The notes: generated by a model from the letters alone, not told the origin. Shown: positions 34,919-58,166, counted from the first letter of the stretch. The stretch is DNA of 64,000 nucleotides from Bacteroidota bacterium (GCA_038528965.1 JBCBEC010000022.1:4640-68639), one strand, 5' to 3'. Made by a program: numbers and translations.

Positions 34919-35069
34919 ACAATGGACATTGTTAGCCTTGATGGTAAGTAGGTAAGGGCTGCCTCATCATTTTTAGTGAAGCATCTACATATAAATGACT
35001 AGAGACCGGTGCCTGGAACCCTCCTAAATTGCATTCCATAAATCACTCATTAATCTAAAATTTGATTTA

Positions 35070-37196
35070 ATGGAAGGTAATGGTCAATTGGAGAAGGGAT
35101 TTTTAGCGGATGCCGCTATGCTCCACGATAAATTTAATCGGCTAGAACGTTGTTTTGAGGTTGCTGCTGATTACATTGAAAATAGCGAGGATATAGCATT
35201 ACTTTTTGCCAGTAGCGATAATCGGGCTTTGATCAATTCACTAGCAGAACCTGAATTTCAGGTAGGGATTGCGGGCTGGTATTCTGCTGGGAAATCGACG
35301 CTTATAAATGCAATTTTCAAAAAGAAGAAATTCTTGCCAGAAGGGACTGCTCCAACTACAGCTTTTCCAACCTTTATCAGGAAATCTACTAATGGGAAGG
35401 AGCGTGCAAAAGTGACCTATCTTAGTGAATCAGATCGTAATAACTTAAAGCGAGAGTACGTCACTAATATTTTTGAAACATTAGCCTTGCCTAAAAATCA
35501 TCTAGAGCAACTGCTAGCATTACCGAATAAAGAAATGTTAGCAGGACTGGAAAAAATGATCGCTAGTAAAGGGGGAGAAAAGGCCCACAATAATTCTTTA
35601 CAGTGTCTGAAAGTACTCATCAAGCACTATGAGTCCGAACTTGACACGAACCCTGATCCTGTACCTATCGATAAGGCGTTACAAATTGATGAGAGTCATG
35701 ACAATAGTACAATCATTAAGCAAGTAGACATCTACCTAAATGATTTGCCCTATGATGACTATGTTGTTTTAGTAGATCTGCCGGGATTAGGCTCTAACAA
35801 CATTCGTCATGAACAGATTACTCGAGATATTGCTTTTCAGAGTGCTACTAAGTCTTTTGTTTTTGTATTTGCTGCCACGGGTACGGCTAACGGGGAATTA
35901 GAGGATTTTATTATAAGTTTAAACAATGAAAAGCTACCAATAAGCGATTCTTTTTGGGTGATTAATAAATGGACTGAGCAAGCTGCTAGTGAGCAAGTTC
36001 AAGAAAATTTTTTCCGGGATTGGCGTAAACGACAAGTAAAGATTCAGTCGGACCGCTTTTTTACTATCCCATACAGTGAACAGTTATTGGAAGATCCCAA
36101 TTTTGTGCGAAAGGTAGAGCTTTTCAAAGAACAGCTCTTTAGTTTTCTAATGCGGCAGGCCCAACGTGAATTTCTGGGTAAAGCAGAAAATCTGTACCAG
36201 CGCATTTCCAGTAAGATCGGTACAGCTTTGGTAAAAACAGAGCTACCAAAGAATGTGGACGATGATGTCTATATTTTCAACGAGAGTTCAAAATATTTTG
36301 ACCACTGGATCTCATTATTAGAATTCACCATTGATAGCGCATTAAAAAAGGCTTTCAAGAATGCAGATCTACCGGCATTCGACTTGCTCAAAACACCTGA
36401 TATAGAACAAATTGGAGTAGAAATTGAGCAGCAGTTTGACCTAGACGAGGCGGCGGAATTGGTTTTACTATCACGGCTGGTCAAACAAAGTGTTAATACT
36501 CCAGATTTTGTCAATATCTTGAGGGAAGTGCTGAATAAAGTAGACCCTGCCCAACTAGTGCGGGAACATTTGCAAAGTGATACTGCGCAAGCACTCATTC
36601 ACGAACTGTTCCAGCCTTTTACCGCTCTGACCAACCAAACCATAGCCATTGGTAGTAAGCAGCTTCCATTGTCAGACTTTATTCACAGAAGACTAGAAGA
36701 AATCATTAATGTGAATAGTATCCTATTCCGTATTGACGGAGTTGTGGACGCAGTGTACGTTCAGGTAGTCGATGAACTCATTGTTTTCTTAGCAGAGAAA
36801 TTCTTAACGGAGTTTATTAATGGTTCTACAACAGAAGCAACTGACAATACAAATACGACTCCGGCCATTTCCTCTGGGGTATATGAAGAGCGTACTAAGG
36901 CTATACTACAGGAAATACCTCGTTACATTGTTCGCTACCTTAAAGACAAACAGACTAATGTTAATCTACAACTCCGTAATACCCAACAAACCCACTTTAA
37001 ATACGTCAAATCACGCTTAGATCAACTTCTGAGAGAAGAAAGTTTTCGATCTACTGTTCGTATGATGATCATGGAAATCGTTAGGGCTGATGCCGCCCAT
37101 TATCTTGATTTAGACGATGCCAAGAAAAAAATTGATGCCATCCACGAACTCCAAAGCCTGGTGGCAAAGCGGGAACCTAACTTATCTCACACCTAA
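35070..37196 (+). CDS. Bacterial dynamin-like GTPase
   Basis: G1 'GIAGWYSAGKSTLINAIF', G2 region 'TAPTTAFPT', G3 'VLVDLPGLGS' (the dynamin DLPG), G4-like 'VINKWTE'. The 708-aa length with a long helical stalk is typical of BDLP/DynA-type proteins. Confidence 0.7.
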   Translation: MEGNGQLEKGFLADAAMLHDKFNRLERCFEVAADYIENSEDIALLFASSDNRALINSLAEPEFQVGIAGWYSAGKSTLINAIFKKKKFLPEGTAPTTAFPTFIRKSTNGKERAKVTYLSESDRNNLKREYVTNIFETLALPKNHLEQLLALPNKEMLAGLEKMIASKGGEKAHNNSLQCLKVLIKHYESELDTNPDPVPIDKALQIDESHDNSTIIKQVDIYLNDLPYDDYVVLVDLPGLGSNNIRHEQITRDIAFQSATKSFVFVFAATGTANGELEDFIISLNNEKLPISDSFWVINKWTEQAASEQVQENFFRDWRKRQVKIQSDRFFTIPYSEQLLEDPNFVRKVELFKEQLFSFLMRQAQREFLGKAENLYQRISSKIGTALVKTELPKNVDDDVYIFNESSKYFDHWISLLEFTIDSALKKAFKNADLPAFDLLKTPDIEQIGVEIEQQFDLDEAAELVLLSRLVKQSVNTPDFVNILREVLNKVDPAQLVREHLQSDTAQALIHELFQPFTALTNQTIAIGSKQLPLSDFIHRRLEEIINVNSILFRIDGVVDAVYVQVVDELIVFLAEKFLTEFINGSTTEATDNTNTTPAISSGVYEERTKAILQEIPRYIVRYLKDKQTNVNLQLRNTQQTHFKYVKSRLDQLLREESFRSTVRMMIMEIVRADAAHYLDLDDAKKKIDAIHELQSLVAKREPNLSHT

Positions 37197-37209
37197 AAAA
37201 ATAACACTT

Positions 37210-38106
37210 ATGTGGGTATGCAGTAATGATGCCACTCATCAGTTTCCAGAACGGACTGAAGATGGGTTTTGTCCGCATTGCAGTTTTCGGGGTACGCTAA
37301 TTCCCGAAGCCATCGACAAATTAGATGATCAACCGCAAGGAACAGTACCCAAAGGAGAGCAGGGGGAACAAAGAGATGTAGGCCTTTGCATTTTGTTGAT
37401 GGATGCTTCAGGTTCTATGTCAGAAAAACCATTTTCCAATGCTGAGTCTACTAAGGCAGAGTTGATTGCACGCTCAGCAGCTCGCGGCATCTTTGATCTA
37501 GAAAGCATGACCATGACTCAGAATGCTTACCTCTGTATTATCATGTTCGATGCTAACGTGAAGCAGATTGCTTTCGACACTGTATCTAATCTACTCAGAA
37601 AACACCACCGGGATCCTATTCGCTTTGAGCAGTTTTTACTGTCTAAACTGAAAGAAATGGGAGGAATGACTGATTTAAACAAGGCTTTACTAGCCGCCGA
37701 AGCACTAGCGAATAAGTTCTTGAACAAGTCTATTCCCTCTTTTCAGGACTACACAGTCATGAAGCATCGTATTATGAAAAAGGATGCGAAAACCATCAGT
37801 GTGCCCAATGTCCGTGTACTCCTCTACACAGATGGACATCACAATGCCACTGGAGAGGTTGTGGTAAACCCATTTCAGGGACAATCACCAGACTTACTAA
37901 TGGGAGCCTATTTTGGAGCAGCCTCAGATAAGGGCAATCAGCAATTAACGGCTATCCTAAGTGAATGCCCAGTACACGAAGGTGTTTTGCAACATTTCTT
38001 GTTTGATGACCCGACCAATGTGGGCTCCTTGCGTCATTTATTTAGGATGGCCTCTAACACTTCCGGTTTTTGTCCCAAGTGTATGAATATATCGGCAAGT
38101 GTATGA
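37210..38106 (+). CDS. von Willebrand factor A (vWA) domain protein with N-terminal zinc-ribbon
   Basis: N-terminal 'WVCSNDATHQ...FCPHCSF' is a Cys4-like ribbon. The MIDAS motif 'ILLMDASGSMSE' plus downstream 'LYTDGHHN' make up the vWA fold. It starts 14 nt after the dynamin-like gene. The ORF-track start at 37117 lies inside that gene and is rejected. Confidence 0.65.
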   Translation: MWVCSNDATHQFPERTEDGFCPHCSFRGTLIPEAIDKLDDQPQGTVPKGEQGEQRDVGLCILLMDASGSMSEKPFSNAESTKAELIARSAARGIFDLESMTMTQNAYLCIIMFDANVKQIAFDTVSNLLRKHHRDPIRFEQFLLSKLKEMGGMTDLNKALLAAEALANKFLNKSIPSFQDYTVMKHRIMKKDAKTISVPNVRVLLYTDGHHNATGEVVVNPFQGQSPDLLMGAYFGAASDKGNQQLTAILSECPVHEGVLQHFLFDDPTNVGSLRHLFRMASNTSGFCPKCMNISASV

Positions 38107-39791
38107 GAAAGCTATTATTTTTCCTCCCGCTGTGTATAAGCACAATTGGTACTGTGACGGCTCAAGCATACTACCAACTCCAATTGGATTATCAGACTGA
38201 TGTTTGGGTATATGAATACCTAGTGGGTAAGGATACCATTTATCTTCATCACAACGAGATCTTTTTAGCAAAAGAAGAAGAGCAAAGACAGGATACTATC
38301 TGCCTGCAATTTGCTCAAGAGTTTATCTGTATACCCGATAGCCTACTGAAGGAAATACACCCGAGATTATCGGCTACTGAATTTCGTGTTGACATAGATA
38401 CAATACAAGTTGGTGATGAAATTCATTTAGACTTCAGCGACATCCTCAGTGAAAGAACTCCTACCATCTGGATTTTACCTTACGGCGAGAGAAGTGCCTG
38501 GAAACGGTCATATAATGGCAGTAAAAGCTGCAATCTGACCAATACTCCATCTTGTAGAATATGGGCAAGGGGACTACCCTCTCTGTTCTATGAAAATGAC
38601 TCCCTTTTTATTCCGAAGACGGAAACAGTAAGCGTAGATTCAAATAGCCTAATTGAGCAGGAGCACCTTGAGCATCAATTGAACGCAACTCAGATTATCG
38701 TAAGCGACCTAGAAAAAGCATTGGAACAGAAAGAAAATCAGAGTAAAAAAGAACATCTTTTCTTCGTCTTACTTCTAGCGACCTCACTGTTTGGCTGTTA
38801 TTTTTTGTTTCAAAAAGTGGATCAACTCCGTATAGTCAATCGTGACCTACAGGCAGTAATAGCGGGGGTAAAGACTAATTATAGTAAAGAAATCCTTAAA
38901 CCGATAGCATTAACAGAACAAGTAACTTCAAAACGAACTTTCGGTATGGAAATACTTGTTTCGGCAGGCCCCCGAAAAATGTTCAGTACCGAGGATAATG
39001 ATCTTGACTTGGGAGAAGATATTGGGGGGTGCCTGCAGTTAGGCGATAGGCTATATTTCTGGGTGTTAGATGGGACGAGTCAGAGTGCTATTTTGCGCAA
39101 TTCCAAGCAAGAAGATCTGTTTTCGAGCCGCTATCTAGCGCAAAGTATTGCGGCTTTTCTTCAACAATCACTCCGACGTACTAATGGCCAATTACCAGTA
39201 CGTACTGCCTTGCTGGAGAGTATTGAAGGGGTTCGTCAGGAGTGGGAAAAAAACATCAACGCCTTGACGGAAGAGCGCAAAACAAAGATTCTCAATTTCT
39301 TAATTGACAATATTCACGCAACCTGTTCAACAACCGTACTGGTGGGGTGCCTAACTCTGGAGGGAGAACTGAAGTGCTGCCGTATTGGCGATTCCTTCCT
39401 GTTTGCCTACGACAAAAATGATGGTCTCGTACCCTCTGCTCTCTCCACCAAACCTGGAACCGAGCGCTATGATCGCCAATTTTTCCGATTACAGCGCACA
39501 ATTGGGGAAGACCAGGTAAAAGTTGTTAGCAATGAAATACAGCCTGAGTTTTGGTCCATTACGGATATTCAAAGGGTAGTTGTTGTTTCCGATGGAGTGG
39601 GAATATCAACCCGTACTTGGTTGAAGCATCTAGACGCCCTAAATAATCCGCAGAACTACCGATCAATTGTCGGTAAGATCCCGCAAGCAACCCAGGATGA
39701 CAAAACCTTTTTAATAGTGGAGATTATAGAACAACCCAACGAATCAGAATCGCTAAAGGTAGAACCTAATCATGAAAGTCAGGATATTTGA
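38103..39791 (+). CDS. Membrane-associated PP2C/SpoIIE-like serine/threonine phosphatase-domain protein
   Basis: Start taken at 'MRKLLFFLPLCISTIGTVTAQA' (signal). Its ATG overlaps the vWA stop (ATGA). There is a mid-protein TM 'LFFVLLLATSLFGCYFLF'. The C-terminal 'YFWVLDGTSQSA...VVVVSDGVG' resembles the PP2C metal-binding DG/SDG motifs. Confidence 0.5.
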   Translation: MRKLLFFLPLCISTIGTVTAQAYYQLQLDYQTDVWVYEYLVGKDTIYLHHNEIFLAKEEEQRQDTICLQFAQEFICIPDSLLKEIHPRLSATEFRVDIDTIQVGDEIHLDFSDILSERTPTIWILPYGERSAWKRSYNGSKSCNLTNTPSCRIWARGLPSLFYENDSLFIPKTETVSVDSNSLIEQEHLEHQLNATQIIVSDLEKALEQKENQSKKEHLFFVLLLATSLFGCYFLFQKVDQLRIVNRDLQAVIAGVKTNYSKEILKPIALTEQVTSKRTFGMEILVSAGPRKMFSTEDNDLDLGEDIGGCLQLGDRLYFWVLDGTSQSAILRNSKQEDLFSSRYLAQSIAAFLQQSLRRTNGQLPVRTALLESIEGVRQEWEKNINALTEERKTKILNFLIDNIHATCSTTVLVGCLTLEGELKCCRIGDSFLFAYDKNDGLVPSALSTKPGTERYDRQFFRLQRTIGEDQVKVVSNEIQPEFWSITDIQRVVVVSDGVGISTRTWLKHLDALNNPQNYRSIVGKIPQATQDDKTFLIVEIIEQPNESESLKVEPNHESQDI

Positions 39792-41007
39792 TAAAGAATA
39801 CAACTACACTTCTGATTACACTACGAATAGCGATAATTGGAAATTTCAGAACCGCGATGATTTTACGATTACGCCTGTCAAAATTGGCGGATACCCCTGC
39901 TTTATCAAGCGCTTTGAGCAGGAGCCACCGGGTATTAGCGGATTAAAACTATTAAGAGGTAAGTTTATCGAGAACCTGCCCATTGTGCATGATGTAGTGA
40001 CGGATCAGGAAGATAATAGGCCAGTCACCTATTTGTTTTTAGAATATCATCCTGGAAGGACCTTGACGGAACAGTTGCGAGAAGGCCTAGAAATTAGGCC
40101 ACAGGTTTTAGTAGAAGATTTGTATCAGGCACTCGCTGACTTGCACGAACTGGGTTTCTGGCATACTGATTTTTGCGAAAAAAATATCTACTATTCTTCG
40201 CGTGCCAAGCGATTCATAATCATTGACCTGGATAGTATAGAACACGTTTCTAATCTGCCAACACCTATTCCCCATGAGCCAGGTGGTTTACTAAATCAGG
40301 ATTTCGCCATCGTAGCTAGAAGTTTTCTCAACGAGTACATAGGCACCGACCACAAGTTGAACAAAGATCTATCTGGAGTGACGTTAAATTACTTTCAATT
40401 ACTCGTGCTGATCGCTAAACTTGGCTTTTATATCGAGCAAAAGCAATTGAATACAACCTTTAAGTATACTCTTAGTAATTTCGATGATTTGCACCATTAC
40501 ATGCACCATAAAGTATCAAAACCTGGCCAAGCCATTTTTAAAGCGGGAATCGCTCGGGAAGGAGGGAAACTGAGACGCAAAGAAGTGTTAGCTTTTGCGG
40601 ATGAAATACTTCCGTTAGGTACAGTATACATTCTATCAACGCGTAATCGGAAGGAAGTGATCTCCTCTCCTCAGATTCTATCTTTTTTAGCCAATGGTCA
40701 AAGCGGTAGAGTTAAGGTTCGGAGAGGTAAAAAAATACGAATATCCTGGAGTGTAAAATACGCTGATGAAGTACAATTCAATGAACAGGCTTATCACCAA
40801 TTGTGTCATCACATTAATATACCCGTACAACAGAATATGGAGCTGAATCTAATGGTAACGGGGACTGTAAATGGTGAATCCATTACGAATAAACAAACGA
40901 TTGTCGTGGAGATCAAACTTCCCTCAACTGGTACTTACTTATTGATCTTTTGTACCGTATTCATCCTGTTATTAATACTTTGGCTAGTTTTTTCTCCAAT
41001 AATTTAG
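39772..41007 (+). CDS. Ser/Thr protein-kinase-like protein with C-terminal TM anchor
   Basis: Catalytic-loop-like 'HTDFCEKNIYY' (HxDxxxxN) followed by 'IIIDLDS' (a DFG-equivalent). C-terminal hydrophobic 'LLIFCTVFILLLILWLVF'. Overlaps the upstream gene by 20 nt. Confidence 0.5.
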   Translation: MKVRIFDKEYNYTSDYTTNSDNWKFQNRDDFTITPVKIGGYPCFIKRFEQEPPGISGLKLLRGKFIENLPIVHDVVTDQEDNRPVTYLFLEYHPGRTLTEQLREGLEIRPQVLVEDLYQALADLHELGFWHTDFCEKNIYYSSRAKRFIIIDLDSIEHVSNLPTPIPHEPGGLLNQDFAIVARSFLNEYIGTDHKLNKDLSGVTLNYFQLLVLIAKLGFYIEQKQLNTTFKYTLSNFDDLHHYMHHKVSKPGQAIFKAGIAREGGKLRRKEVLAFADEILPLGTVYILSTRNRKEVISSPQILSFLANGQSGRVKVRRGKKIRISWSVKYADEVQFNEQAYHQLCHHINIPVQQNMELNLMVTGTVNGESITNKQTIVVEIKLPSTGTYLLIFCTVFILLLILWLVFSPII

Positions 41008-41014
41008 TCCGTAG

Positions 41015-44000
41015 ATGTCCAATCAACTTCTACAACCTTATTTTTCCAGGCACCTTGCTTTTTTGATTGGTGTTCAGGAGTATCAATATCTGAATGACTT
41101 GGAAACGCCGCTTAATGACGTGCACGATTTAGCGGAAGTGCTGAAAAAAGAGCATGGATTTCAAGTAGAAAATCCCTTACTTAACCCTGATAAAGCGAGC
41201 TTAGAAGCATATATCCGAGATTATATTCCCCAAAAGGTAAAAGAGGAAAAAAATGATCGAGTCGTAATTTATTTTGCGGGTCACGGAGAAGCGGATATAA
41301 ATGAGGAGGGTTCGCCACAAGGCTACCTCCTACCCTCTGATGCGCTCTCTGGTAATACAAGTAGTTCTGTTCCCATGTCGCTGCTGCACAGTGTAGTAGA
41401 AGCTTTACCATGCCAACACCTACTACTTATTCTTGACTGTTGCTTTGCTGGTGCTTTCCAGTGGGATGTCAAGAAACGTGGATATTCTAAATCTCAAATG
41501 GGGAATAGATTATTTCGCGCTTATTTTGCTAGGAATGCTGAGAAAAAAGCCCGACAGGTCATTGTGTCCACCGGTGATGACCAGAAAGCAGTAGACATTT
41601 TGGACCGCCGTTTAGATCGGAATTCCCCCTTTGCTGCTGGTCTTATCAAGGGTCTACAGGGACTGGCTGATAATCCCAAAAATGGTTTTATATCGATAAG
41701 TAAGCTGGTAGGCTATGTGGATACATCATTGGAGGTAACGCTTTCAGGTAATGGTGAAGTAATCAGGCAAAAAGCTTTTGCGTATACGCTAAATAATCAT
41801 GAGCACGGAGAATTTTTCTTCTGCTCTCCATATACTAAAATCAGCCTTTGGGATGATGATTATCGTATTAATCCTTTTAAGGGCTGGGCGGCTTATGAAG
41901 AGGCTGACGCCTATCGTTTCTATGGAAGAGACGAAGACATGGAGCAGTTACTGGATACACTAGAGCAACATAAATATACCTTTCTACATGGTAGTACTTA
42001 CACTGGGAAAAAATCTGTAGTTACAGCGGGACTATTACCGGAGCTCAAGAGTCGTAATCTATCAGTATGCCGATTAATAGTAGGACAAATTGATCAGGTG
42101 GAGTTCGTTAAGCAGATCGAGAGGTATCATCGTGTTATAGTTATTTGCCCATCAGATGTTCATCTGCAAGTCGCTCGGGAAAACATTAAAACGGTGTTGG
42201 AGGCAACAGCCAAGCGTAGTGATATCCATGTTTTGTGCTGTGCAGATACGCATTTGTACGAGCAATTGCCTATAGGCGATTGGGCTAAGTTTGGCCCTAT
42301 TGAAAGCCTGAAACTAAAATCACTCACGCGCCTATCACTGCGAGATATGATTGAAAACCCACTGGTTTTCAGGGGCTTTGGCTTTGAACCGGCTAAACTA
42401 CCCGAGATTATACTGGAGGAGTTACGACCTACTCTAGCACCGCTACCCCTTTTATCTGCGACGATGCACGCTACGTTCCAAGACTTTATTGCAGAAGGCC
42501 GGCCCACCCGCATGATTACCCTGCAAAATTTCCAGCGAACAGGCGGTGTACAAGGGGTTTTTATTAAACAGTTTAAGACGGCGCTAGAGCAGCTAGACTC
42601 AGATGCCAGGCAGTGGGTAATGCTACTTTTAAGTCGTTTCATACAGCAAAGTGACCATCTTGTGCTAAGCCGGGACGTACAATTGCAGGAGCTAGAGTAT
42701 GAAGACCCAACAATTACAACACACATACTCGCCCTACTGGACCATCTACACAAGGCGGGTGTACTATTTCGGAAGAGGAATACTTACCAATTTGCCTATC
42801 CGCTTCCTATCAGTAGCTGGCCACCCTTGCAGACCTGGTTGCTGTCTATTGGTCAGGATAAAATTGATCTGCAACGCGAATTGTGGCTTGCTACTACTAA
42901 ATATGAGCGTTCAAAGCAAAATGAAGTTCGGATAGTAGGAAAGGAGAATAGCGAAACCGCTGAAGGCCTTTGGGGGTCACACTTAGAGCTTGCTAAGGCG
43001 CTTACACTTATGCATAGTCAACCGTACTTTTTCAATTCACAGGAAAAAGCATTTTTGACAGAGAGCCAAGCACAAAGAGAGAGCATATTAGTAGAAAAAT
43101 CTCTAGTCGGAGCAAAAAGTATAGCAAAGCATAGTCCAAATTTTGCTTTGCGGCTGTTGGAAAACTTGCACCGTAAACACCCTAAGAAAAAGTCTATCCT
43201 GAACGCTCTGGAAGAGTTGCTTTCTAACAGTTTGTTCTATGGGGTATTTGCTAACCCGCCAGTCACAAGTGAAGCCAAGCAATTTTGTTTTCATCCCTCG
43301 GGAAAATATCTTTTCCTGCTTAAAGATCAATTCTTAGAAGTAGTCAATTGGATCACGGGTCAGAAAAATACCCTTTCGCTATCTACTGCTCCCATCCAGA
43401 TGCAAGCTTATCGAGAAGCCGAAGCAATCTTGCTCTTGCTACCTGGGAAGTTACACTGTTTAGATGCAATGCTGGCTACCGAATGGACTAAGGAAATACC
43501 AGAAGATATTACGAGCTTCGCAATCGGTGAGACTACTGGTCATGTATATTTAATGAGTCAATTGGGGGTAGTATCTTGGATAACTACTGAAGGAGGAGTT
43601 TATGGGCAACAGACTATCGAGGCCCTCAAAGTAGGAAAGTTTCTTCAGGTAGACCCGAAGGAAGAATACTTGCTTATGGGAGGGCAAGTAGGAGCAAGCG
43701 TAGCCCATGGTCAGCTGGGGTTATTCCTAATTAAGGACGGACATTCTAGATGGGCACTTCAGCAGAAAAAAAAGATAAACCTCTTGCAAAAGTTATCTAC
43801 TCGAAATATTGGTTTACAGGCTATTGCCTTTTCACCTGATAGCCAAATAATTGCCGTAGGGCTAGGTAGTGAACAGATCATTTTTTCACGTACTAAGAAA
43901 AAATACGGAGAAGTCGTTTTGTATGATCTCTCTGGCCAACAATTAGCACTTTTAGAAGGATTTAAGGGAAATGTTTTAGCGCTAGCCTGGAGTTCTCACG

Positions 44001-45229
44001 AACAATGGCTGGCCACATCTAGTGATACCCGAGTTATCATCTGGAATATAAAAGGGGAACAATTACTTACGATACAGTGTAAGCATCCGGTATTGCAATT
44101 GGCCTTTATTCCCAATCGAGACGATTTCCTCTACTGCCTGGATCAGACAGGAACATTATTCTATGTTAAATTGACCCGTTTACAGTTACCCAATCTGTCT
44201 GCTGGTGTTATTAAAGAAGGGCTGCGTTCGATTGTTTCGAATGGGGAATACCAAGGAAATTATCACTTTGTGGGTGTAGAAATGCCACACCGACAGCAGC
44301 GACTCTACTATTGGGTAGCAGATCATACCAGGATTGTTCAAACTAGAGAATGGACAGTTCCCATGCCGATGAATGCTATCATTCCGCTGTCAAAATTAGG
44401 TATGTTAGCAGCGGCGGGTACAGATGGGAATATCTACTTCCTTAATTTGACAGACAAAGATAACTTCACAATAACTCCTCGGGCCCCACAATTAGCTCCC
44501 ATCTCTACTCTAGTTACGGATCAGCAACAGGACTGGTTAGCGTGGGCCTCAGCTCCAAAAACTGATTTACGCTTCAAGACCAGTGACCCAACTATCAACT
44601 TCATGCGATTCAACAATAAGACAGCAAAGAGTTGTCCCGTGGTATTGTATCATCTCGATACCAGAAAAAGTAGAGTGTTAGCCAGTTTCCCTGAAAATGT
44701 TATCCAATTACTATTCCACCCCAAGGAAGAACAAATTCTTATTGCATTAGAAAATGGCCTGATACAGCTCGTTGATTTTCAAGGTGTAATTCACTGGGAT
44801 TCAAAAAAGGATGGTTACCAATTCGGGCAGATCGATAAGATAGCGATCAGCAAAGATGGTAGGCGGTTGCTGATCGGAGGTGAGAAGTTGATTCTCATAA
44901 ACGATTTCAAAGACTTGGATCAACTCACAGCGGCAAAAGAAGGTGTAACCGCTATCGCACATGATCCCACCGGTGGGTATTTCGCCACTGGTTCAAAAGA
45001 TGGTTACCTACAAATATGGGCTGTCGATGGTACGCTATTAATCACATTTTTGAATGGAGAAAGCAACCGCCCAGTAACCTGCCTATCCTTTACTCCAGAT
45101 GGTAAATATCTAGTGGCCAGCCAAGATTATCAAGGGAGCTTTAAATGCTGGCATTCTCTAAAAGGAATGTTTGACACAGTGTTCATTCCTAAGCTTCCTA
45201 TTAGTAATAACAGTAATGCAAATATTTGA
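41015..45229 (+). CDS. Tripartite caspase-like protease / STAND-type NTPase / WD40-repeat protein (1404 aa)
   Basis: Caspase dyad 'VVIYFAGHGE' and 'LILDCCFAGAF'. P-loop 'FLHGSTYTGKKSV' in a ~350-aa NACHT/NB-ARC-like module. The C-terminal ~600 aa has WD40-like units ('FSPDGKYLVASQDYQGSFKCW', 'IAHDPTGGYFATGSKDGYLQIWAVDG', 'LAWSSHEQWLATSSDTRVIIWN'). Starts 8 nt after the kinase-like gene. Confidence 0.75.
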   Translation: MSNQLLQPYFSRHLAFLIGVQEYQYLNDLETPLNDVHDLAEVLKKEHGFQVENPLLNPDKASLEAYIRDYIPQKVKEEKNDRVVIYFAGHGEADINEEGSPQGYLLPSDALSGNTSSSVPMSLLHSVVEALPCQHLLLILDCCFAGAFQWDVKKRGYSKSQMGNRLFRAYFARNAEKKARQVIVSTGDDQKAVDILDRRLDRNSPFAAGLIKGLQGLADNPKNGFISISKLVGYVDTSLEVTLSGNGEVIRQKAFAYTLNNHEHGEFFFCSPYTKISLWDDDYRINPFKGWAAYEEADAYRFYGRDEDMEQLLDTLEQHKYTFLHGSTYTGKKSVVTAGLLPELKSRNLSVCRLIVGQIDQVEFVKQIERYHRVIVICPSDVHLQVARENIKTVLEATAKRSDIHVLCCADTHLYEQLPIGDWAKFGPIESLKLKSLTRLSLRDMIENPLVFRGFGFEPAKLPEIILEELRPTLAPLPLLSATMHATFQDFIAEGRPTRMITLQNFQRTGGVQGVFIKQFKTALEQLDSDARQWVMLLLSRFIQQSDHLVLSRDVQLQELEYEDPTITTHILALLDHLHKAGVLFRKRNTYQFAYPLPISSWPPLQTWLLSIGQDKIDLQRELWLATTKYERSKQNEVRIVGKENSETAEGLWGSHLELAKALTLMHSQPYFFNSQEKAFLTESQAQRESILVEKSLVGAKSIAKHSPNFALRLLENLHRKHPKKKSILNALEELLSNSLFYGVFANPPVTSEAKQFCFHPSGKYLFLLKDQFLEVVNWITGQKNTLSLSTAPIQMQAYREAEAILLLLPGKLHCLDAMLATEWTKEIPEDITSFAIGETTGHVYLMSQLGVVSWITTEGGVYGQQTIEALKVGKFLQVDPKEEYLLMGGQVGASVAHGQLGLFLIKDGHSRWALQQKKKINLLQKLSTRNIGLQAIAFSPDSQIIAVGLGSEQIIFSRTKKKYGEVVLYDLSGQQLALLEGFKGNVLALAWSSHEQWLATSSDTRVIIWNIKGEQLLTIQCKHPVLQLAFIPNRDDFLYCLDQTGTLFYVKLTRLQLPNLSAGVIKEGLRSIVSNGEYQGNYHFVGVEMPHRQQRLYYWVADHTRIVQTREWTVPMPMNAIIPLSKLGMLAAAGTDGNIYFLNLTDKDNFTITPRAPQLAPISTLVTDQQQDWLAWASAPKTDLRFKTSDPTINFMRFNNKTAKSCPVVLYHLDTRKSRVLASFPENVIQLLFHPKEEQILIALENGLIQLVDFQGVIHWDSKKDGYQFGQIDKIAISKDGRRLLIGGEKLILINDFKDLDQLTAAKEGVTAIAHDPTGGYFATGSKDGYLQIWAVDGTLLITFLNGESNRPVTCLSFTPDGKYLVASQDYQGSFKCWHSLKGMFDTVFIPKLPISNNSNANI

Positions 45230-45342
45230 TAACCGTATGTCGGCTCCTATTTACTCCTCATAACGTTACTTCCCGAATAGAGGTAGGCTTTTCTCAGATT
45301 GCTTTTTGTTATCTTTGTTCGCGAGTTTATATACAATTAAAA

Positions 45343-45627
45343 ATGGCAGACCAATCGGCAAAACTTCTGGAAATTTGTTTAGAAAATCCTTTGCTACAGA
45401 ACCTAGTTAAGGCTTTGGCAGAGGAGCTTAAAACAAGTAGTAATGATGAAGATGATTGGATTACAGCTGGGGAGGCAATGACAATACTTCAAATTTCATC
45501 TGCAACAACATTGAAGAAGTACAGAGAACAGAACGAGATCAAGTATAGCAAGCCTTCTGGTATGAAGCGTATCTTCTACAGTAGAAGTTCCATTCTCAAA
45601 TTCTTAGAAAAAAAATCTAATCATTAA
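45343..45627 (+). CDS. Small helix-turn-helix DNA-binding protein (excisionase/HTH_17-like, common on Bacteroidetes mobile elements)
   Basis: Internal start 'MADQSAKLLE...'. HTH-like 'WITAGEAMTILQISSATTLKKYREQNEIKYSK'. Lies at the cargo/backbone junction. Confidence 0.45.
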   Translation: MADQSAKLLEICLENPLLQNLVKALAEELKTSSNDEDDWITAGEAMTILQISSATTLKKYREQNEIKYSKPSGMKRIFYSRSSILKFLEKKSNH

Positions 45628-45631
45628 GATC

Positions 45632-45904
45632 ATGACTTATTCTGGTGACGCTGTATTAGAAGGTTTCAATTCTGGTTATGCTATTGAAAAATATAGGCCT
45701 GATATTGCATCTCAGATAAACAATTCTATTGGAGAAAGTCAGATTGATTTTTTTCGGGGCTTCGTCGCTGGAAGTCAACAGTACATCAAAGAACGTACCC
45801 AATCTAAAACTATCGGTAAGCTTCGTGATATTACCCGGCAAATACCTCGTCCCACTCAGAAGGGTAAGGACAGGCCCGATAAGGGCTTTGAGATAGATCG
45901 TTAA
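45632..45904 (+). CDS. Hypothetical protein
   Basis: ORF only. Confidence 0.3.
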   Translation: MTYSGDAVLEGFNSGYAIEKYRPDIASQINNSIGESQIDFFRGFVAGSQQYIKERTQSKTIGKLRDITRQIPRPTQKGKDRPDKGFEIDR

Positions 45905-45905
45905 C

Positions 45906-46952
45906 CTATGGCCTTTCTCGTAGTTTCTTTTTCACAAAGTTGACGAAAGCCCCATCTGCCTTTTCTGGGTTAAATCCATTCATAAGCTCATATGAAAACT
46001 GCGTGTGTAAGTTATCAAAGGACCAAGCCGTTCCTGATTGTTCGACCATCTGTCTCACCTTTTGTAGGGTTTCTGGCTTGATACTTGGAAGGTCCTTTAG
46101 CTTCATGACCGGTCTAAGTAAGCCAAATTCTACCTTGTCCTGTTCGTTTAATCGTAGCCAATAATCGGGTAAATGATCGTCCTTCTCGATCTGGCGAATG
46201 AAGTAGCGGAACTTCTTCAGCGAAGAAGTAGAACCAGTCTTTTCTTTGAGCTTTGTTAGCGAAATACTCCAGCTTTCCTGTTTGCCACAGTGCTTTCGAG
46301 CAATCTCATACAAGCGTCGCTCTAGCGCTTTTCCGAGCCAAAAATAACGACGACTTATAGTGAGTACCTCTTTACCGATGATAGAATTGAAGAACCATTC
46401 GGATAGGGTGATTTCCAAGCGGAGCATCCGGTTTTTTACCCTACTGCTTTCAATGATTTCGTAACTATCAATCAGACCAAAAGCGGAAGTGATTTCTCGT
46501 TTATCGGTCTTAATATTCGTTTTGATACTTACCCCTTGTAAGCGATCTAATGCCTTTTTGAGGAGGCCGTAGCCTTTGCCATTGGTTGGGCGGTTTGTAG
46601 CTACTAGGAGATCGTGACTGGATATTCTTAGTGTTCGTTTTGGTGTATTTCCTCTATTGATTGCATCCATAAGTAAAGACGCACAGTAGAGCAATACGTC
46701 TTTATCGAAAATAGTGGGTAGGCCCAATACGCTAGGAGCTATTCGTAAGGTGCTAGTACCATTGGTGTATTCCAATGTCCTAACATCCCGATTTTTGGAT
46801 AGCGAGAAAATGGGATGTTCCATTGAAGCAATGTCATCCTTAAGCGGCAGATTGTCAAAAATATCGGCGATGAAGAAGTCCTTGGTGGGGTGCCTTTCTG
46901 GAGCGAGTGTTGGCTTTACGGGCTTTAATTCTAGTGATTGCTGCATAGTCAT
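45906..46952 (-). CDS. repA: Replication initiator protein (RepA-family of Bacteroidetes plasmids/mobilisable elements)
   Basis: N-terminal 'FFIADIFDNLPLKDDIASMEHPIFSLSK' is characteristic of the replication-initiator-A family. Iteron-like direct repeats lie immediately upstream. Confidence 0.55.
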   Translation of the reverse strand: MTMQQSLELKPVKPTLAPERHPTKDFFIADIFDNLPLKDDIASMEHPIFSLSKNRDVRTLEYTNGTSTLRIAPSVLGLPTIFDKDVLLYCASLLMDAINRGNTPKRTLRISSHDLLVATNRPTNGKGYGLLKKALDRLQGVSIKTNIKTDKREITSAFGLIDSYEIIESSRVKNRMLRLEITLSEWFFNSIIGKEVLTISRRYFWLGKALERRLYEIARKHCGKQESWSISLTKLKEKTGSTSSLKKFRYFIRQIEKDDHLPDYWLRLNEQDKVEFGLLRPVMKLKDLPSIKPETLQKVRQMVEQSGTAWSFDNLHTQFSYELMNGFNPEKADGAFVNFVKKKLRERP

Positions 46953-46954
46953 TC

Positions 46955-47125
46955 TTCGTAACTTCGAGAACTAGCATAGCAGCTAGAATATCTTTGGCAA
47001 TATCAATTCGCAACTTCGAGAACCATCCCCAAAAGCGTTCGGAACTCTAGGAACCGATGTACGGAACTTCGGGAACTTTGGTTCGATACTTTAAGAACCT
47101 TCGTACGGAACTTTAGGAACCGCCC
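46955..47125. repeat. Iteron-like direct repeats upstream of repA (candidate origin)
   Basis: 'aacttcgagaac' appears twice (46960, 47012). 'ggaactctaggaacc', 'cggaacttcgggaac' and 'cggaactttaggaacc' (47041-47121) are variants of GGAACTNNNGGAAC. Confidence 0.5.
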
Positions 47126-47312
47126 AGTTGCGAAAAGTCAGGCTGAGCCTGGGTTTTAACGGGTGATTTCGTGCCGTAACACTACACTAACACACTATAT
47201 AACGTAAGTTATAACACTAGCAAAAGTGGCGGGTGCTTCGCACTGATTTAATAAGGAATTCGCTGACGCGAATCAGTTTTGGTATTTGCTATTGAAAGGA
47301 AAAAAGAAGAGG

Positions 47313-47912
47313 TTAGCCAAAGAAGTAGACAATGCCTATGATGAGCGTCACCATAATAACTGCAACAGCAAAGAATTTCAAAACATCGCCGATTTCCTTG
47401 ATTAGTGATGATCGGGAACCCTTCGTTTTTTCTTTTGGGCTGCGATGATCTTCCAGGAGTCGAGTATGTTGCGAAATGCTTTTGGTCAGTTCACCTACCT
47501 GTTGCTGCATAAGATGTTCACGCGCCTCTGCTTTACTGTCTCGATCTTGCGCCTCTAGTCGTTCTCGTATGCGTTCAGATTTCTCTTGTTCCAGTTGGGA
47601 CTCCAAGGATTCGATTTTATGCTGAAGTAGGGCAGCATTCACCATGTTTTGAGTTGTGCGCGGCTGTATTTTTGTGCTAGTTTTAGCTATTGTATTTGCG
47701 GCATTGCTCTTGTTAGACAGTATTTCCTGCATACGATCTGGGAACACCCGCTGCAATTCTATCAGGCGAATAACCTTATTTCCATTCTCATCTTTTTCAA
47801 AAGAGATACCGTCATTTCCAGCCGTTTTAGTACGCTTGTTAAGGGTACTGCGTGACTTGAATCCAAGTAGCTGCGTAGCCTCTGAAATGGTATATTTTTC
47901 CTTCATTTCCAT
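47313..47912 (-). CDS. Hypothetical coiled-coil protein with C-terminal TM; possible N-terminal HTH
   Basis: Start 'MEMKEKYTISEATQLLGF' is preceded by AGGAGG on the minus strand. Basic and coiled-coil middle, TM 'FFAVAVIMVTLIIGIVYFF' at the end. Divergent from the primase gene. Confidence 0.45.
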   Translation of the reverse strand: MEMKEKYTISEATQLLGFKSRSTLNKRTKTAGNDGISFEKDENGNKVIRLIELQRVFPDRMQEILSNKSNAANTIAKTSTKIQPRTTQNMVNAALLQHKIESLESQLEQEKSERIRERLEAQDRDSKAEAREHLMQQQVGELTKSISQHTRLLEDHRSPKEKTKGSRSSLIKEIGDVLKFFAVAVIMVTLIIGIVYFFG

Positions 47913-48046
47913 CTGTATCCTCCTGTGCTTTGGCATTATGTATTGATACAGGCAGTGTATTCTTACACCTTGCAAAGCGCAAGCTCTTTTTGCTTGTATT
48001 GCTGTACTAGAAGGGATAAGTTGTACTATAAGGTTAAGGAAAGGAT

Positions 48047-49042
48047 ATGCCAGCAAAAGTCATCAATAATACACAGTGGGCAAAGGAGAATATTTCTATG
48101 CCAGAGTTGCTGAGTCGCTTTGGCCATGAACCAGTACAGGCAGCTAAGAGTGGAAATGAGCTATGGTATATTTCTCCGTTTCGCTACGAAAAAGAACCTA
48201 GCTTTCATACCTCCTATTTGGGAGGAAAATGGATATGGAATGATTTTGGCCGAGGTGATGTACAAGGGAAAGGGACGGTAATTGGGTTCTTGGAACTTCA
48301 TGAAAATGTAGACATCAGCGAAGCACTCCAAATTCTGAAGAATCTGTTTCCACATAGGGGGACACCCGCTTCGATGGATGTGCTTAAGCGATTACCACTT
48401 TTCAAAGACATCGTACTTCATCAGCCGATGGAAGAGAAAGAAAAGGACTCCCTCGCTCTAGAAGTTTTGGATGTCAAAGAACAGATTTGGGACAGGAATT
48501 TGATTGGTTACCTATCAGGGGAACGGTGCATCAATCATCAACTGGCCCTACCTTACTTGCAGTGCATTAAATACAGGAATGTACGGACTGACAAAACCTA
48601 CCAAACCCTAGGCTTTGTCAATCTTTCGGGAGATTATGAGTGTAGAGATAAGTATTTCAAGGGCATACTGAGAGCACCCGATGCACAAGGCAGAAATACA
48701 ATTAAAGACATCTCCTTTGTACAAGGAACAAGCCAAGATGAAGTAGCCGTATTTGAGGGCTTCATGGATTTTTTGACGGTATTGACAATCAAGGATGTTC
48801 CAGTGCTCCCAGTGGACGTGGTTGTTCTGAACATGGTAAATATGAGACAGAGAGCGATGGAGTTTATCCGCTCGCAGAAGTACAAAACCGTATACACCTT
48901 TTTTGATAACGATAATGCAGGAGAGAAAACGACTCAACTATTTCAAGACAAGTTAGGAGAAGTAGTGAAACCTCAGAACCATCTTTATCAAGGCTACAAG
49001 GATTACAACCAGTACTATCAGGAACAAAAGAGAACGAGCTAG
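48047..49042 (+). CDS. Toprim-domain DNA primase-like protein
   Basis: C-terminal 'VYTFFDNDNAGEKT' is the Toprim acidic motif. The N-terminal region resembles primases of Bacteroidetes conjugative transposons. Confidence 0.55.
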   Translation: MPAKVINNTQWAKENISMPELLSRFGHEPVQAAKSGNELWYISPFRYEKEPSFHTSYLGGKWIWNDFGRGDVQGKGTVIGFLELHENVDISEALQILKNLFPHRGTPASMDVLKRLPLFKDIVLHQPMEEKEKDSLALEVLDVKEQIWDRNLIGYLSGERCINHQLALPYLQCIKYRNVRTDKTYQTLGFVNLSGDYECRDKYFKGILRAPDAQGRNTIKDISFVQGTSQDEVAVFEGFMDFLTVLTIKDVPVLPVDVVVLNMVNMRQRAMEFIRSQKYKTVYTFFDNDNAGEKTTQLFQDKLGEVVKPQNHLYQGYKDYNQYYQEQKRTS

Positions 49043-49062
49043 TTTTTTCTTTTCAACAGCAC

Positions 49063-49530
49063 TTACTCGGTTACATACCAATCGGAATTCTCAAAAATAA
49101 CCTCTACGTCAGCTTTGAATGCTTCATGGTCGAACGAACTAGTGATATCGTGCTCACCAATTGTATCAATCCCTTCTAGTAGTGCCTTCTCCATCAGCTT
49201 AATGACAGTTTCTTCATCAGCTTCAACAACGTCCTGAAAAGGGATTCGTATGCCAATATCGACACTGGCTTTGTCTGGATAGTAGTCGCTACCCACCCAA
49301 TTAGAAAAGTTAGGAGTGATTTTTTCCAAGACAACGAAGGTGAAGTAGAACTTGGTAATTCCTTCGCCGTAGTTGCGCAAGTCAATTTGCTCACGAAGTA
49401 CCTTCAAAAACAGACCAGGGTCTACTTTTGGGTACAACTCATGCCAGATACGACCAGAAATGAACAGTTGTTGTTCACCAGCCAAATCCTGAATGGGCGC
49501 AGTTTGTATTTGATCCTGATTAACTGTCAT
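49063..49530 (-). CDS. Hypothetical acidic protein
   Basis: ORF. Overlaps the upstream minus-strand gene by 11 nt. Confidence 0.4.
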   Translation of the reverse strand: MTVNQDQIQTAPIQDLAGEQQLFISGRIWHELYPKVDPGLFLKVLREQIDLRNYGEGITKFYFTFVVLEKITPNFSNWVGSDYYPDKASVDIGIRIPFQDVVEADEETVIKLMEKALLEGIDTIGEHDITSSFDHEAFKADVEVIFENSDWYVTE

Positions 49531-50161
49531 ATTTATTTCCTGGTGGTCGTGCTAAAATAACTTCTCGTGCTGTCGCTTCGGGCAGTAAGGGGTAATTATA
49601 GATCAACCGTTTCTCTTCCTTTAGGCATTCGCTGTACGTTCCATAGAACATTGGAAGGAATAACAAATTCTCGGCTCCATAGTTCCCTCCTGGGTATCGC
49701 TCGGCTTCTCCCTTGCGCGTTATTCCGTACTTCCAGACATTGCCTTTGTATAAATATATGGTCTTCAGCCCAAAAGGGCAAGATAAGCAAGGGTATTCAC
49801 CATTATACGAAGCGATCAGGGCATATTGGGTAGCATTATCTATCTCTTCCAGTTCTCGATCTAGTTTTGCTTGCCTTTCAGGAGAAAGGGTAATCTCGCC
49901 ATCAGGTGTTTCTATGATGCCAGGAGCAACCTTCTTACTGCTATTCAAAAAATGATAACCGGATAGAATTAAGGCGAACAAGAGTAACATGGCGATCCAC
50001 TTATGCCCTCTGGGGGCATTACCACTGTTTTTGTTGGAAACCACTCTTAGCCTTGTACGAGATAAAGTCCCGCTTTTTTTAGCGGGAGATGAGCTAGCCA
50101 TGACGCTATTTGGTTGGTGGATAGCATTCAAAGCTACGGCAAAGTGTTGATACTCACCCAA
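49520..50161 (-). CDS. Hypothetical membrane-anchored protein
   Basis: TM 'WIAMLLLFALILSGYHFL' and a Cys-containing C-domain. No family assignable. Confidence 0.4.
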   Translation of the reverse strand: MGEYQHFAVALNAIHQPNSVMASSSPAKKSGTLSRTRLRVVSNKNSGNAPRGHKWIAMLLLFALILSGYHFLNSSKKVAPGIIETPDGEITLSPERQAKLDRELEEIDNATQYALIASYNGEYPCLSCPFGLKTIYLYKGNVWKYGITRKGEAERYPGGNYGAENLLFLPMFYGTYSECLKEEKRLIYNYPLLPEATAREVILARPPGNKYDS

Positions 50162-50369
50162 GGATTTAGGTTAAAAAATAAGGTTTTATGCTAAGGGTTT
50201 CACCCTCGCGCCCAGCAATAAAAATAGGCTGCGACCGTGTGGTACGCCTTTAGCGTACTGCCCGCACCACTCTCGCCGATTTTTCTTTGTAGTTGCTACC
50301 CAATCCTCGCCGGAGGGCAGAAGGGTATAGCAGATAGCTATAGCCCTTCAGTAACTAAGGAGAAAAAAG

Positions 50370-50588
50370 ATGGACATGAAAACCTGTCGTGATTTAATCT
50401 GGGAACAGCTTGACTTGGAAAATTCGGCCTGTCTCATATTTCTTGATGGAGAAAAGCATTCAATCTGGAATAATCCAGCAGATGTACTCCGTCAAGTACG
50501 CATGTTAGAGGAGCAGTATGATCCTTCGTGCATTTCAATAGAAGTACTTCCCAATGTGAATTGCATCGATGGAGGATACTTCTTCTAA
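50370..50588 (+). CDS. Hypothetical small protein
   Basis: ORF preceded by 'taaggag'. Confidence 0.3.
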   Translation: MDMKTCRDLIWEQLDLENSACLIFLDGEKHSIWNNPADVLRQVRMLEEQYDPSCISIEVLPNVNCIDGGYFF

Positions 50589-50649
50589 AGGCACTTGCCT
50601 TTTTCCTCAATTTGAGGATGATTAACAACAACCAATTAAGGAGAATAAA

Positions 50650-51009
50650 ATGGCTTATAACAATAACGTAAAACTAACTGGCAACCTTGGAGGAGAAGCT
50701 AAGATCATCGAAGGCGAAAACAAAACCTTTGCTGCTCTACGCCTTGCCACAACTGATACCTATAAAGACAAAGAAACGGATGAGTGGAAAGACAAGGCGA
50801 CTATTTGGCATGATGTCATTGTCTTCAACCCTGCTCTGATCGAGGAAGTAAAAGCCTACAAGAAAGGTGTACGATTAGAGATTGACGGTAGCCTTTCTTA
50901 TCGTGAATTTCTAGTTAGTATAAACGGTAAGGAGGTCACTAAAAGGGAAGCATCTATTCTTGCTCACAAGATTGAACAAGCCCCTTTAGTGAAAAAAGAT
51001 AAAGCATAG
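50650..51009 (+). CDS. Single-stranded DNA-binding (SSB-like, OB-fold) protein
   Basis: 'VKLTGNLGGEAKI...FAALRLATTDTYKDKETDEWKDKATIWHDVIVFN...LEIDGSL' follows the SSB OB-fold pattern. Preceded by 'aaggagaat'. Confidence 0.5.
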   Translation: MAYNNNVKLTGNLGGEAKIIEGENKTFAALRLATTDTYKDKETDEWKDKATIWHDVIVFNPALIEEVKAYKKGVRLEIDGSLSYREFLVSINGKEVTKREASILAHKIEQAPLVKKDKA

Positions 51010-51103
51010 TAGGCTTGGATTCGAGGGCTTTTCCGGTCCTCGATTTCCATATACAAGCCCGATAATCTATGATAGGATAATTAAGCAATTAAGGAGAATT
51101 GTA

Positions 51104-51304
51104 ATGTCTTTAATGATGGGAAGTTTATACAATGCTTTAGTCCAAGCTGGAGTAGGACAAGACGAAGCGGCAAAGGCTGCCGAAGAAGTAGCCTCCTACG
51201 AAAATCGCATTGCGAAAATTGAGGTTGATCTGGCGGTACTTAAGTGGATGGTCGGCTTCAATATTGCGACAACAGTAACCATTCTGGTGCGTAGTTTCTT
51301 CTAG
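51104..51304 (+). CDS. Hypothetical small membrane-associated protein
   Basis: ORF with SD 'aaggagaat'. C-terminal hydrophobic segment. Confidence 0.3.
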   Translation: MSLMMGSLYNALVQAGVGQDEAAKAAEEVASYENRIAKIEVDLAVLKWMVGFNIATTVTILVRSFF

Positions 51305-51305
51305 C

Positions 51306-54501: not shown

Positions 54502-54729
54502 GTTTTAGCTCGTTTTGACTGGTTTAATTATAGTTACAGGCGTCTCCCCTTAGCACAGCTAGAGGACTTATAGGCAAGGTAGCAGCGATTGGAAATCAAT
54601 GCAATAGGAGGTTTTTGGAAAACCCGGGAAAACTGAAATGGTGCCGGTTAGATCGTGCCATTTCAAACACTGTAAAGAGTAGATTTGGCACTGGGCATTT
54701 GCTATTGAAAAGAAAAAGCGTTAGAAAAA

Positions 54730-58140: not shown

Positions 58141-58166
58141 ATTGTTCTCTAAAAAAAACACCATAT

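Follow-up and report, generated by a model that had tools for sequence, protein, structure and literature searches.

In a 64,000-nucleotide stretch of DNA from a Bacteroidota bacterium (GCA_038528965.1, JBCBEC010000022.1:4640-68639; hereafter, the window), positions 41015-45229 of the plus strand encode a 1404-residue protein in which a caspase domain precedes an nSTAND1 module with eroded NTPase motifs and a C-terminal WD40 region, as judged from the open reading frame (ORF), its translation and Pfam. The ORF is uninterrupted over 1404 codons and has a GC content of 41%. Pfam assigns residues 12-219 to Peptidase_C14 (E = 1.3e-16), followed by nSTAND1 (PF20703; E = 7e-38) and WD40 (E = 2.5e-24); the combination of protease, STAND NTPase and repeat region proposed in the original prediction is present at exactly 41015-45229. 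The DNA of the gene recurs without any difference on two independent public contigs, one from the Logan assembly of SRR22824309 and the other a contig of a metagenome-assembled genome labelled Bacteroidota, and because these copies match base for base in two independent assemblies, the frame is not an assembly artefact. The protein belongs, as a highly divergent member, to the bacterial caspase-nSTAND1-WD40 family, and its three modules follow the order of Apaf-1. This architecture has already been described, is common in filamentous Bacteroidota and cyanobacteria, and is widely annotated, at NCBI under the names 'caspase family protein' and 'nSTAND1 domain-containing NTPase'. What is new is the wholesale loss of NTPase motifs within a family that otherwise conserves them strictly, the orphan character of the sequence, and its site beside a TerY-P-like triad and a conjugative/replicative backbone.

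The caspase domain (41048-41854, plus strand; residues ~12-280, delimited by Pfam, Foldseek and invariant columns) scores 61 bits against PF00656, for a cutoff of 21.4, which places it in the C14 caspase fold. When the AlphaFold2 (AF2) model was searched with Foldseek, the N-terminus matched the MALT1 paracaspase and metacaspases (E ~1e-9). The catalytic His/Cys dyad is intact, with His90 in a YFAGHG motif and Cys143 in LDCCFAG; H90, D141, C142 and C143, all invariant columns among the 54 aligned sequences, are kept without exception. Retention was measured throughout on columns with a conservation of 85% or more in 53 homologues; the caspase domain keeps 77% of them, compared with a homologue mean of 95%, a minimum of 40% and a 5th percentile of 77%. 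The NCBIfam model caspase_w_EACC1 gives 81 bits, under its cutoff of 140.

The module that follows (41867-43099, plus strand; residues ~285-695 by Pfam, AF2 and Foldseek) is a nucleotide-binding oligomerisation domain (NOD) made up of an NTPase core with helical and winged-helix domains. It had been labelled NACHT-like, a label that classification with hidden Markov models (HMMs) does not sustain: the NOD is assigned to nSTAND1 and not to NACHT, NB-ARC or SWACOS. The Pfam nSTAND1 model scores 132-137 bits (cutoff, 27.1) in two stretches of our protein versus 294-297 bits in a single stretch of the homologues, and at E <= 1 the NOD fragment (residues 281-745) returned nSTAND1 and a sub-threshold AAA_16 alone from Pfam, with NACHT and NB-ARC unmatched. 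For SWACOS, no separate model was identified in the HMM libraries used. The nSTAND1 group was set apart as a new clade of STAND proteins in systems predicted to counter invaders (Kaur et al. 2021, PMC8195603).

Structure prediction gave a confident fold. The AF2 model of residues 1-880 has a pLDDT (predicted local distance difference test) score of 81 and a predicted template modelling (pTM) score of 0.69, with pLDDT values of 85-97 over the caspase and most of the NOD. In this model a core of canonical ASCE type (beta1 at 321-326, then the P-loop, alpha1 at 332-346, beta2 at 351-355, alpha2 at 361-368, beta3 at 373-377 and beta4 at 405-411) is succeeded by the helical and winged-helix domains. 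In Foldseek, the part of this model after the caspase matched the Apaf-1 apoptosome and Dark. A second model, covering residues 281-1404 (pLDDT 72), had full-length Apaf-1 as its five best matches in the PDB (3shf, 3sfz, 5juy and 3j2t; E from 2.4e-21 to 7e-26 over ~1250 columns), and tandem WD40 propellers ranked after these structures. A sequence search of the PDB with the caspase and the NOD returned no match, and the fold search alone succeeded. An alignment made with the C-terminal fragment only misaligned its first 170 residues and was excluded from folding.

Within this fold, the residues expected to operate the nucleotide switch have been replaced. The canonical Walker A motif, G[AV]SG[TS]GK[ST]S, is found in 119 of the 120 best homologues, and the broader FxGR...GxxxxGK[ST] pattern in 259 of 262 relatives once the exhaustive search is included, whereas our protein reads GSTYTGKKS (41990-42016, plus strand; residues 326-334). 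Columns were compared by means of a NOD HMM built from 119 homologue NODs and a forced hmmalign alignment that covers 261 relatives. In these relatives the Walker A consensus is GASGTGKSS, with SG at 99%, the first Ser at 98% and Lys at 100%; our protein has GKK in place of GK[ST] and a bulky Tyr at a P-loop Gly position. The Walker B of the family, hhh[IV]DQxEE (D 100%, Q 98%, E 99%, E 95%), is represented by RVIVICPSD (42131-42157, plus strand; residues 373-381), in which residues 377-381 align as I-C-P-S-D followed by a gap and the Asp is replaced by Cys378. At the sensor-1 position, hhhS[IV]RSDF in the family, with the Arg 100% conserved, our protein has IHVLCCAD (42227-42250, plus strand; residues 405-412), and no Arg or Lys occurs between residues 405 and 416. 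The EPAHDAL motif of the caspase-nSTAND1-WD40 relatives is likewise absent.

The Ser/Thr of Walker A, both the Asp and the second Glu of Walker B, and the Arg of sensor-1 have thus all been replaced. The strand positions in the AF2 model (beta3 at 373-377 and beta4 at 405-411) agree with the motif register of hmmalign. Our NOD HMM matches the protein in two pieces, residues 285-353 and 385-695, which omit the Walker B segment; this segment also has the lowest pLDDT of the NOD (~56-60 in one AF2 model and <50 in the other), and no register of it restores hhhhD[DE]. An alternative Walker B, IDQVEF at residues 359-364, was rejected, as it lies 33 residues past the start of Walker A, inside predicted helix alpha2, and hmmalign puts strand beta3 at 373-377. 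A deletion of ~45 residues between Walker A and Walker B was also considered and rejected; the spacing ranges from 46 to 125 in homologues and is 42 here.

In P-loop NTPases, Mg2+ is held by the Ser/Thr of Walker A together with the Asp of Walker B, and the acidic residue that follows activates water. Because the Mg2+-holding and water-activating residues are replaced, we predict that NTP hydrolysis, and probably also Mg-NTP binding, has been lost. The NTPase core retains 40% of its conserved columns, compared with a homologue mean of 96% and a minimum of 68%, and the helical and winged-helix domains retain 52% (homologue mean, 94%; minimum, 59%). The loss of motifs is a one-off in an otherwise strictly conserved, active family and not a family-wide trait. 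Of the STAND architecture and the Walker B motif, on the absence of which the original prediction was to fall, one is kept and the other is not: the STAND architecture is there, with nSTAND1 above its cutoff and an Apaf-1 fold, and the P-loop, Walker B and sensor-1 are degenerate.

The C-terminal region (43274-45154, plus strand; residues ~754-1380) is a diverged WD40 beta-propeller region of roughly 12-14 blades with two low-confidence inserts. AF2 models residues 754-1380 as all-beta, and many beta-propeller models of Pfam match residues ~880-1050 and 1209-1380. The repeats are strongly diverged. Pfam WD40 scores 85 bits, with three repeats passing, versus 292-374 bits in the homologues, and a repeat HMM of the family finds four significant repeats (six with weak ones), compared with 13-15 in each of five homologues.

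This divergence is matched by isolation in sequence space. A full-length search retrieved 473 homologues of the same architecture, the best ~30% identical, and an exhaustive HMMER search of 1.84 billion representative proteins gave 9384 matches at E <= 1e-3, among which the protein itself stands alone below 1e-30 and the next is 28% identical. A word-index search with the central 601 residues returned the protein itself and two weak matches. The NOD is on average 23% and at most 27% identical to those of 261 relatives, which have a median identity of 43% among themselves; it forms the longest branch of the 262 NODs, and no relative has an equally distant nearest neighbour. The hosts of the homologues include Lewinella/Saprospiraceae, Nostoc, Scytonema and Leptolyngbya, and an enrichment of related conflict systems in multicellular bacteria has been reported (Kaur et al. 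2020, PMC7159879), both in agreement with the expectation that such proteins belong mainly to multicellular or complex bacteria.

In five of the six caspase-nSTAND1 loci that we surveyed, additional caspase-domain genes stand next to the homologue. The homologues at L003, L005-L007, L010 and L012 are repeatedly adjoined by fusions of a caspase to DUF7379 (lipase/esterase-like) or by tandem caspase-nSTAND1 paralogues, and at the Scytonema locus the homologue lies beside an NB-ARC-WD40 protein. One neighbour, beside homologue P0003, is a stand-alone caspase of 643 residues, and the window holds a stand-alone caspase of the same length (23684-25615) that is 30% identical to it (E = 1e-36). A further gene in the window encodes a caspase-GUN4 fusion (29200-30729), the GUN4 part of which matches the PD-T4-6 model of PADLOC (4e-20). 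Between these two caspase genes are a TPR-HisKA_3 histidine kinase (26290-28455) and a LuxR response regulator (28512-29141). The recurrence of such neighbourhoods suggests multi-caspase cassettes; it is compatible with a protease cascade without demonstrating one.

Immediately upstream of the caspase-nSTAND1-WD40 gene lie five genes of the same strand, for a DUF4407 membrane protein (33548-34918; Pfam E = 1.7e-48), a dynamin-like GTPase (35070-37196; Dynamin_N E = 1.6e-16) with the P-loop GWYSAGKS, a 298-residue Zn-ribbon-vWA protein (37210-38106), a membrane PP2C phosphatase (38103-39791; PP2C_2 E = 1.9e-8, above cutoff) and a 411-residue kinase-like protein with a C-terminal transmembrane (TM) helix (39772-41007), all on the plus strand. 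The vWA protein matches VWA_2 below threshold (E = 0.0098), and its zinc ribbon, MIDAS motif, DASGSMS, and TDG motif were recognised by direct reading; the kinase-like protein has the motifs HTDFCEKN and DLD and sub-threshold matches to Pkinase/Kdo (E ~1e-3). From DUF4407 to the caspase, the six genes overlap or are separated by gaps of no more than 150 nt. The kinase stop codon is 7 nt before the caspase ATG, and no terminator-like site was found between these two genes; a scan for sigma-70 promoters carries no information in a Bacteroidota host. Between the caspase-GUN4 and DUF4407 genes, an 843-residue ORF (30735-33266) has no Pfam domain and matches a PHROG 'lipoprotein' (1e-9).

The vWA-PP2C-kinase order, and the presence of a zinc ribbon, recall the TerY-P triad (Anantharaman 2012 and Gao 2020, cited in PMC11090510 and PMC7699616), a stand-alone defence cassette that also attaches to varied other systems. 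In contrast to the TerY-P triad, the set described here has its zinc ribbon on the vWA protein rather than on the kinase, and TM helices on PP2C and the kinase. In PADLOC, the vWA and PP2C proteins were unmatched and the kinase matched the MkoA and PD-T4-6 models alone; the dynamin-like GTPase gave a weak match to LeoA (6e-6). Among 5.8 billion proteins, a single homologue of the kinase-like protein could be detected, and a close-relative scan of 185,579 genomes found no relative of the GTPase. The triad to which this kinase homologue belongs, in the same order and with identities of 41% for vWA, 33% for PP2C and 30% for the kinase, occurs at L008 (4938-8876) and L009 (7805-11743), where dynamin, DUF4407 and caspase-STAND genes are all missing, and none of the six caspase-nSTAND1 homologue loci carries the vWA/PP2C/kinase triad. 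That the gene terminates a signalling operon, as originally proposed, is consequently upheld as a matter of physical adjacency, given the 7-nt gap, and not as a conserved linkage.

On its other side, the gene is followed by a replication/transfer backbone (45343-60952, delimited by Pfam and direct repeats). It begins with an HTH_17 gene (45343-45627), the likely start of which, ATG 45343, is ~115 nt past the caspase gene; a version of this ORF overlapping the caspase stop was rejected in favour of that start. The repA gene (45906-46952, minus strand; E = 1.5e-83) encodes a protein ~47% identical to plasmid replication initiators, and directly upstream of it three 17-mers (TTCGnAACTTCGAGAAC), spaced 52-53 nt apart at 46955-47076, form an iteron-like array that is probably the origin of replication, oriV. 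Pfam further identifies a primase (48047-49042), a single-stranded DNA-binding protein (SSB; 50650-51009), a TrwC relaxase (51676-54501, minus strand; E = 2.7e-69), a type IV coupling protein (T4CP; 54730-56217) and ArdA (60302-60952). Beyond ArdA, near the right end of the window, lies a gene for a HEPN_Cthe2314-family protein (62790-63632, minus strand; E = 1e-7). Relaxase, coupling protein and replication functions, as expected of a mobile element, are thus all present. Canonical P-loops in the window are those of the dynamin-like GTPase, the T4CP and the relaxase alone, with no MoxR or other AAA+ protein, and the GTPase is the sole intact P-loop NTPase of its same-strand gene block.

Whether the caspase gene belongs to this element is less clear. 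The low-GC, same-strand block that contains it (23684-45904) has at its left edge a tRNA-Arg(ccg) gene (22873-22945, plus strand; ARAGORN), which is followed by a 740-nt AT-rich gap. Within the 64 kb, we found no copy of the tRNA-Arg 3' end, no other attachment site (att)-like repeat and no integrase. The tetranucleotide signature did not separate flank, cargo and backbone (r = 0.80-0.90), and neither did Shine-Dalgarno usage. The two contigs with identical DNA (L001, corresponding to 34801-45298, and L002, corresponding to 40559-45293) both end at 45293-45298, within 5 nt of each other, ~65 nt past the caspase stop and ~45 nt before HTH_17. The final 30 nt of L001 are the reverse complement of window positions 45344-45373, and no inverted repeat was found at the 45.3-kb breakpoint. 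The shared end likely reflects an assembly-graph branch at the junction of cargo and backbone; it is as compatible with a tRNA-linked island of the chromosome that merely abuts the element as with a common backbone joined to variable cargo.

All six homologue loci look chromosomal, none has transfer genes within 10 kb, and the RepA/relaxase backbone adjoins none of them. Megablast of the 35-50 kb region against PLSDB plasmids returned no match, and a RepA scan retrieved alphaproteobacterial plasmid-like loci alone (46-47% identity), which is silent on the cargo. The original prediction placed the gene on a mobile element with conjugation and anti-restriction genes; such genes are indeed next door, and enclosing att ends or an integrase were not found in the window. 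As a tRNA-Arg-flanked block of candidate conflict genes lies directly beside a backbone of the plasmid or integrative and conjugative element type, the gene may travel with it. Membership is therefore plausible, and not established, because the window has no att site or integrase, composition is uninformative and the contigs break at the junction.

The protein invites comparison with several known systems. It shares with the caspase-nSTAND1-WD40 proteins (PMC8195603, PMC13581612) its domain order and lengths, the YFAGHG and LDCCFAG motifs, the nSTAND1 region through the winged-helix/helical domains and the C-terminal propellers, and both its locus and theirs have other caspase-domain genes nearby. 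Unlike these relatives, to which it is at most ~30% identical, it has lost the Walker A Ser/Thr, DQxEE, the sensor-1 Arg and EPAHDAL, and compared with the six surveyed loci, it alone stands beside a RepA/relaxase backbone and a vWA/PP2C/kinase triad. A 2026 survey describes orthologues of Apaf-1 in bacteria that have a caspase at the N-terminus (PMC13581612). The EACC1-caspase two-gene system (Kaur 2020) differs in its 5' gene, which here encodes the 411-residue kinase-like protein instead of a single-TM EACC1.

The Apaf-1/Dark apoptosome (PDB 3sfz, 3shf, 5juy and 8y6p) provides the best structural matches over nearly the whole length of the NOD, winged-helix, helical and double-propeller regions, and would follow the same logic, with a propeller sensor controlling a caspase. 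In our protein, however, the protease is fused in cis in place of a CARD and is not recruited through one, and the nucleotide-binding motifs are eroded. Apaf-1 itself needs these motifs for dATP/ATP exchange. Inactive STAND modules have precedents in conflict systems, namely iSTAND and iSTAND2 (PMC7159879, PMC8195603) and KpAvs8, which has degenerate Walker motifs (PMC13581612). As in the iSTAND and iSTAND2 proteins of vWA-MoxR ternary systems and in KpAvs8, an eroded STAND fold has here been kept in a predicted conflict system, with a vWA gene nearby. Unlike them, our protein belongs to a different STAND clade, nSTAND1, and has no MoxR AAA+ partner in the window; its sequence gave no match to the iSTAND model of Pfam.

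Taken together, we consider that the gene probably encodes a caspase joined to a STAND scaffold that is a pseudo-NTPase, with the propellers as the sensor. The NOD would work without NTP hydrolysis, and probably without Mg-NTP binding, as a folded scaffold or oligomerisation module, and the WD40 propellers would remain the sensor of a ligand. Ligand bound to the propellers may relieve autoinhibition or cluster the caspase domains, leading to activation by proximity with no nucleotide exchange. The activated protease might then cleave host proteins, or another caspase-domain protein encoded nearby, with growth arrest or death of the invaded cell as the outcome. The conflict-gene setting of the window comprises two further caspase genes, the TerY-P-like triad, the HEPN gene and ArdA, and in this setting the transferable abortive-infection effector of the original prediction is a hypothesis. 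Several observations weigh against the reading that we favour. G326, G331, K332 and S334 of the P-loop survive, as does D381, so that residual nucleotide binding is possible on sequence grounds, and the exact Walker B register is uncertain because the segment was modelled with low confidence. No close relative among the 1.84 billion representatives could support a dN/dS estimate on the eroded NOD. We infer the defence role from family-level prediction and from the neighbouring genes, and a PADLOC scan assigned the gene to no named defence system, the only models matched being HEAT-ARM and a generic one for caspases.

The surviving P-loop residues, which occupy invariant columns, would be those of a working NTPase with non-canonical motifs, in which K332 and S334 bind nucleotide and D381, aligned with the first Glu of DQxEE, serves as the Walker B acid. 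This is very improbable, given that three independent positions conserved at 98-100% are replaced together (K for S/T in Walker A, C for D in Walker B, and the R of sensor-1 lost), that a bulky Tyr stands in for a P-loop Gly, and that no profile aligns the Walker B segment. If the switch is indeed gone, the gene could instead be a decaying relic, released from selection and drifting towards a pseudogene, its frame still intact through recency of the relaxation and its sensor-effector function lost. Conserved positions have been lost in all modules (retained are 77% in the caspase, 40% in the NTPase core and 52% in the helical domains), 4 of ~14 WD40 repeats are recognisable (6 with weak ones), the nearest relative is ~28% identical, and the NOD forms the longest branch among the 262. 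Yet a protein divergence above 70% with no stop or frameshift over 4.2 kb at 41% GC is unexpected under neutrality, as stop codons would make up ~6% of codons in random sequence of this composition by our estimate. Moreover, the invariant catalytic His and Cys and many structural glycines are kept, the AF2 fold is confident (pLDDT 85-97 for the caspase and most of the NOD), and the losses are focused on catalytic NTPase residues rather than evenly spread. On balance, we regard decay as unlikely.

A different possibility is that the switch has been replaced in trans, the protein being the effector arm of a six-gene module that runs from DUF4407 to the caspase-pseudoSTAND-WD40 gene, with GTPase activity, phosphorylation or both taking over from the NTP switch; for example, the propellers might read a phospho-epitope that the kinase writes and PP2C erases. 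The six genes share one strand and tight spacing, with the kinase stop 7 nt from the caspase ATG and no terminator-like site in between, and the only intact P-loop NTPase of the block is the dynamin-like GTPase. Attachment to a variety of effector systems is known for TerY-P triads (PMC11090510), and Kaur et al. (PMC8195603) note that other NTPases can take the place of STAND modules. Nevertheless, the related triad at L008/L009 comes without caspase-STAND, dynamin or DUF4407, the triad is found in none of the six homologue loci, the close-relative scan of 185,579 genomes revealed no relative of the GTPase, and independent defence genes are often adjacent. Such a module is, in our estimation, rather doubtful. 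Still less credence is given to the proposal that the six genes form a mobile death module in which the caspase is gated in trans by the dynamin-like GTPase together with a vWA/PP2C/kinase phosphorylation switch, and the propellers read phosphorylation or membrane damage.

Among bacterial proteins, those of the caspase-STAND-WD40 type come closest to the animal apoptosome, and, to our knowledge, hardly any of them has been examined in experiments. If the gene described here were merely a fast-evolving orphan, the result would be an ordinary one. As a naturally occurring copy that has kept its protease and lost all of its catalytic NTPase residues, however, it offers a ready means of asking whether assembly and protease activation can do without the nucleotide switch, a question that parallels those raised by P-loop-independent plant nucleotide-binding leucine-rich repeat receptors and by degenerate Avs proteins. 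Should the six-gene death module prove real, it would represent an apoptosome-like protease platform under the control of phosphorylation or a GTPase instead of ATP exchange. Finally, if the gene travels with the conjugative backbone, death modules of the 'multicellular type' would be horizontally exchangeable.

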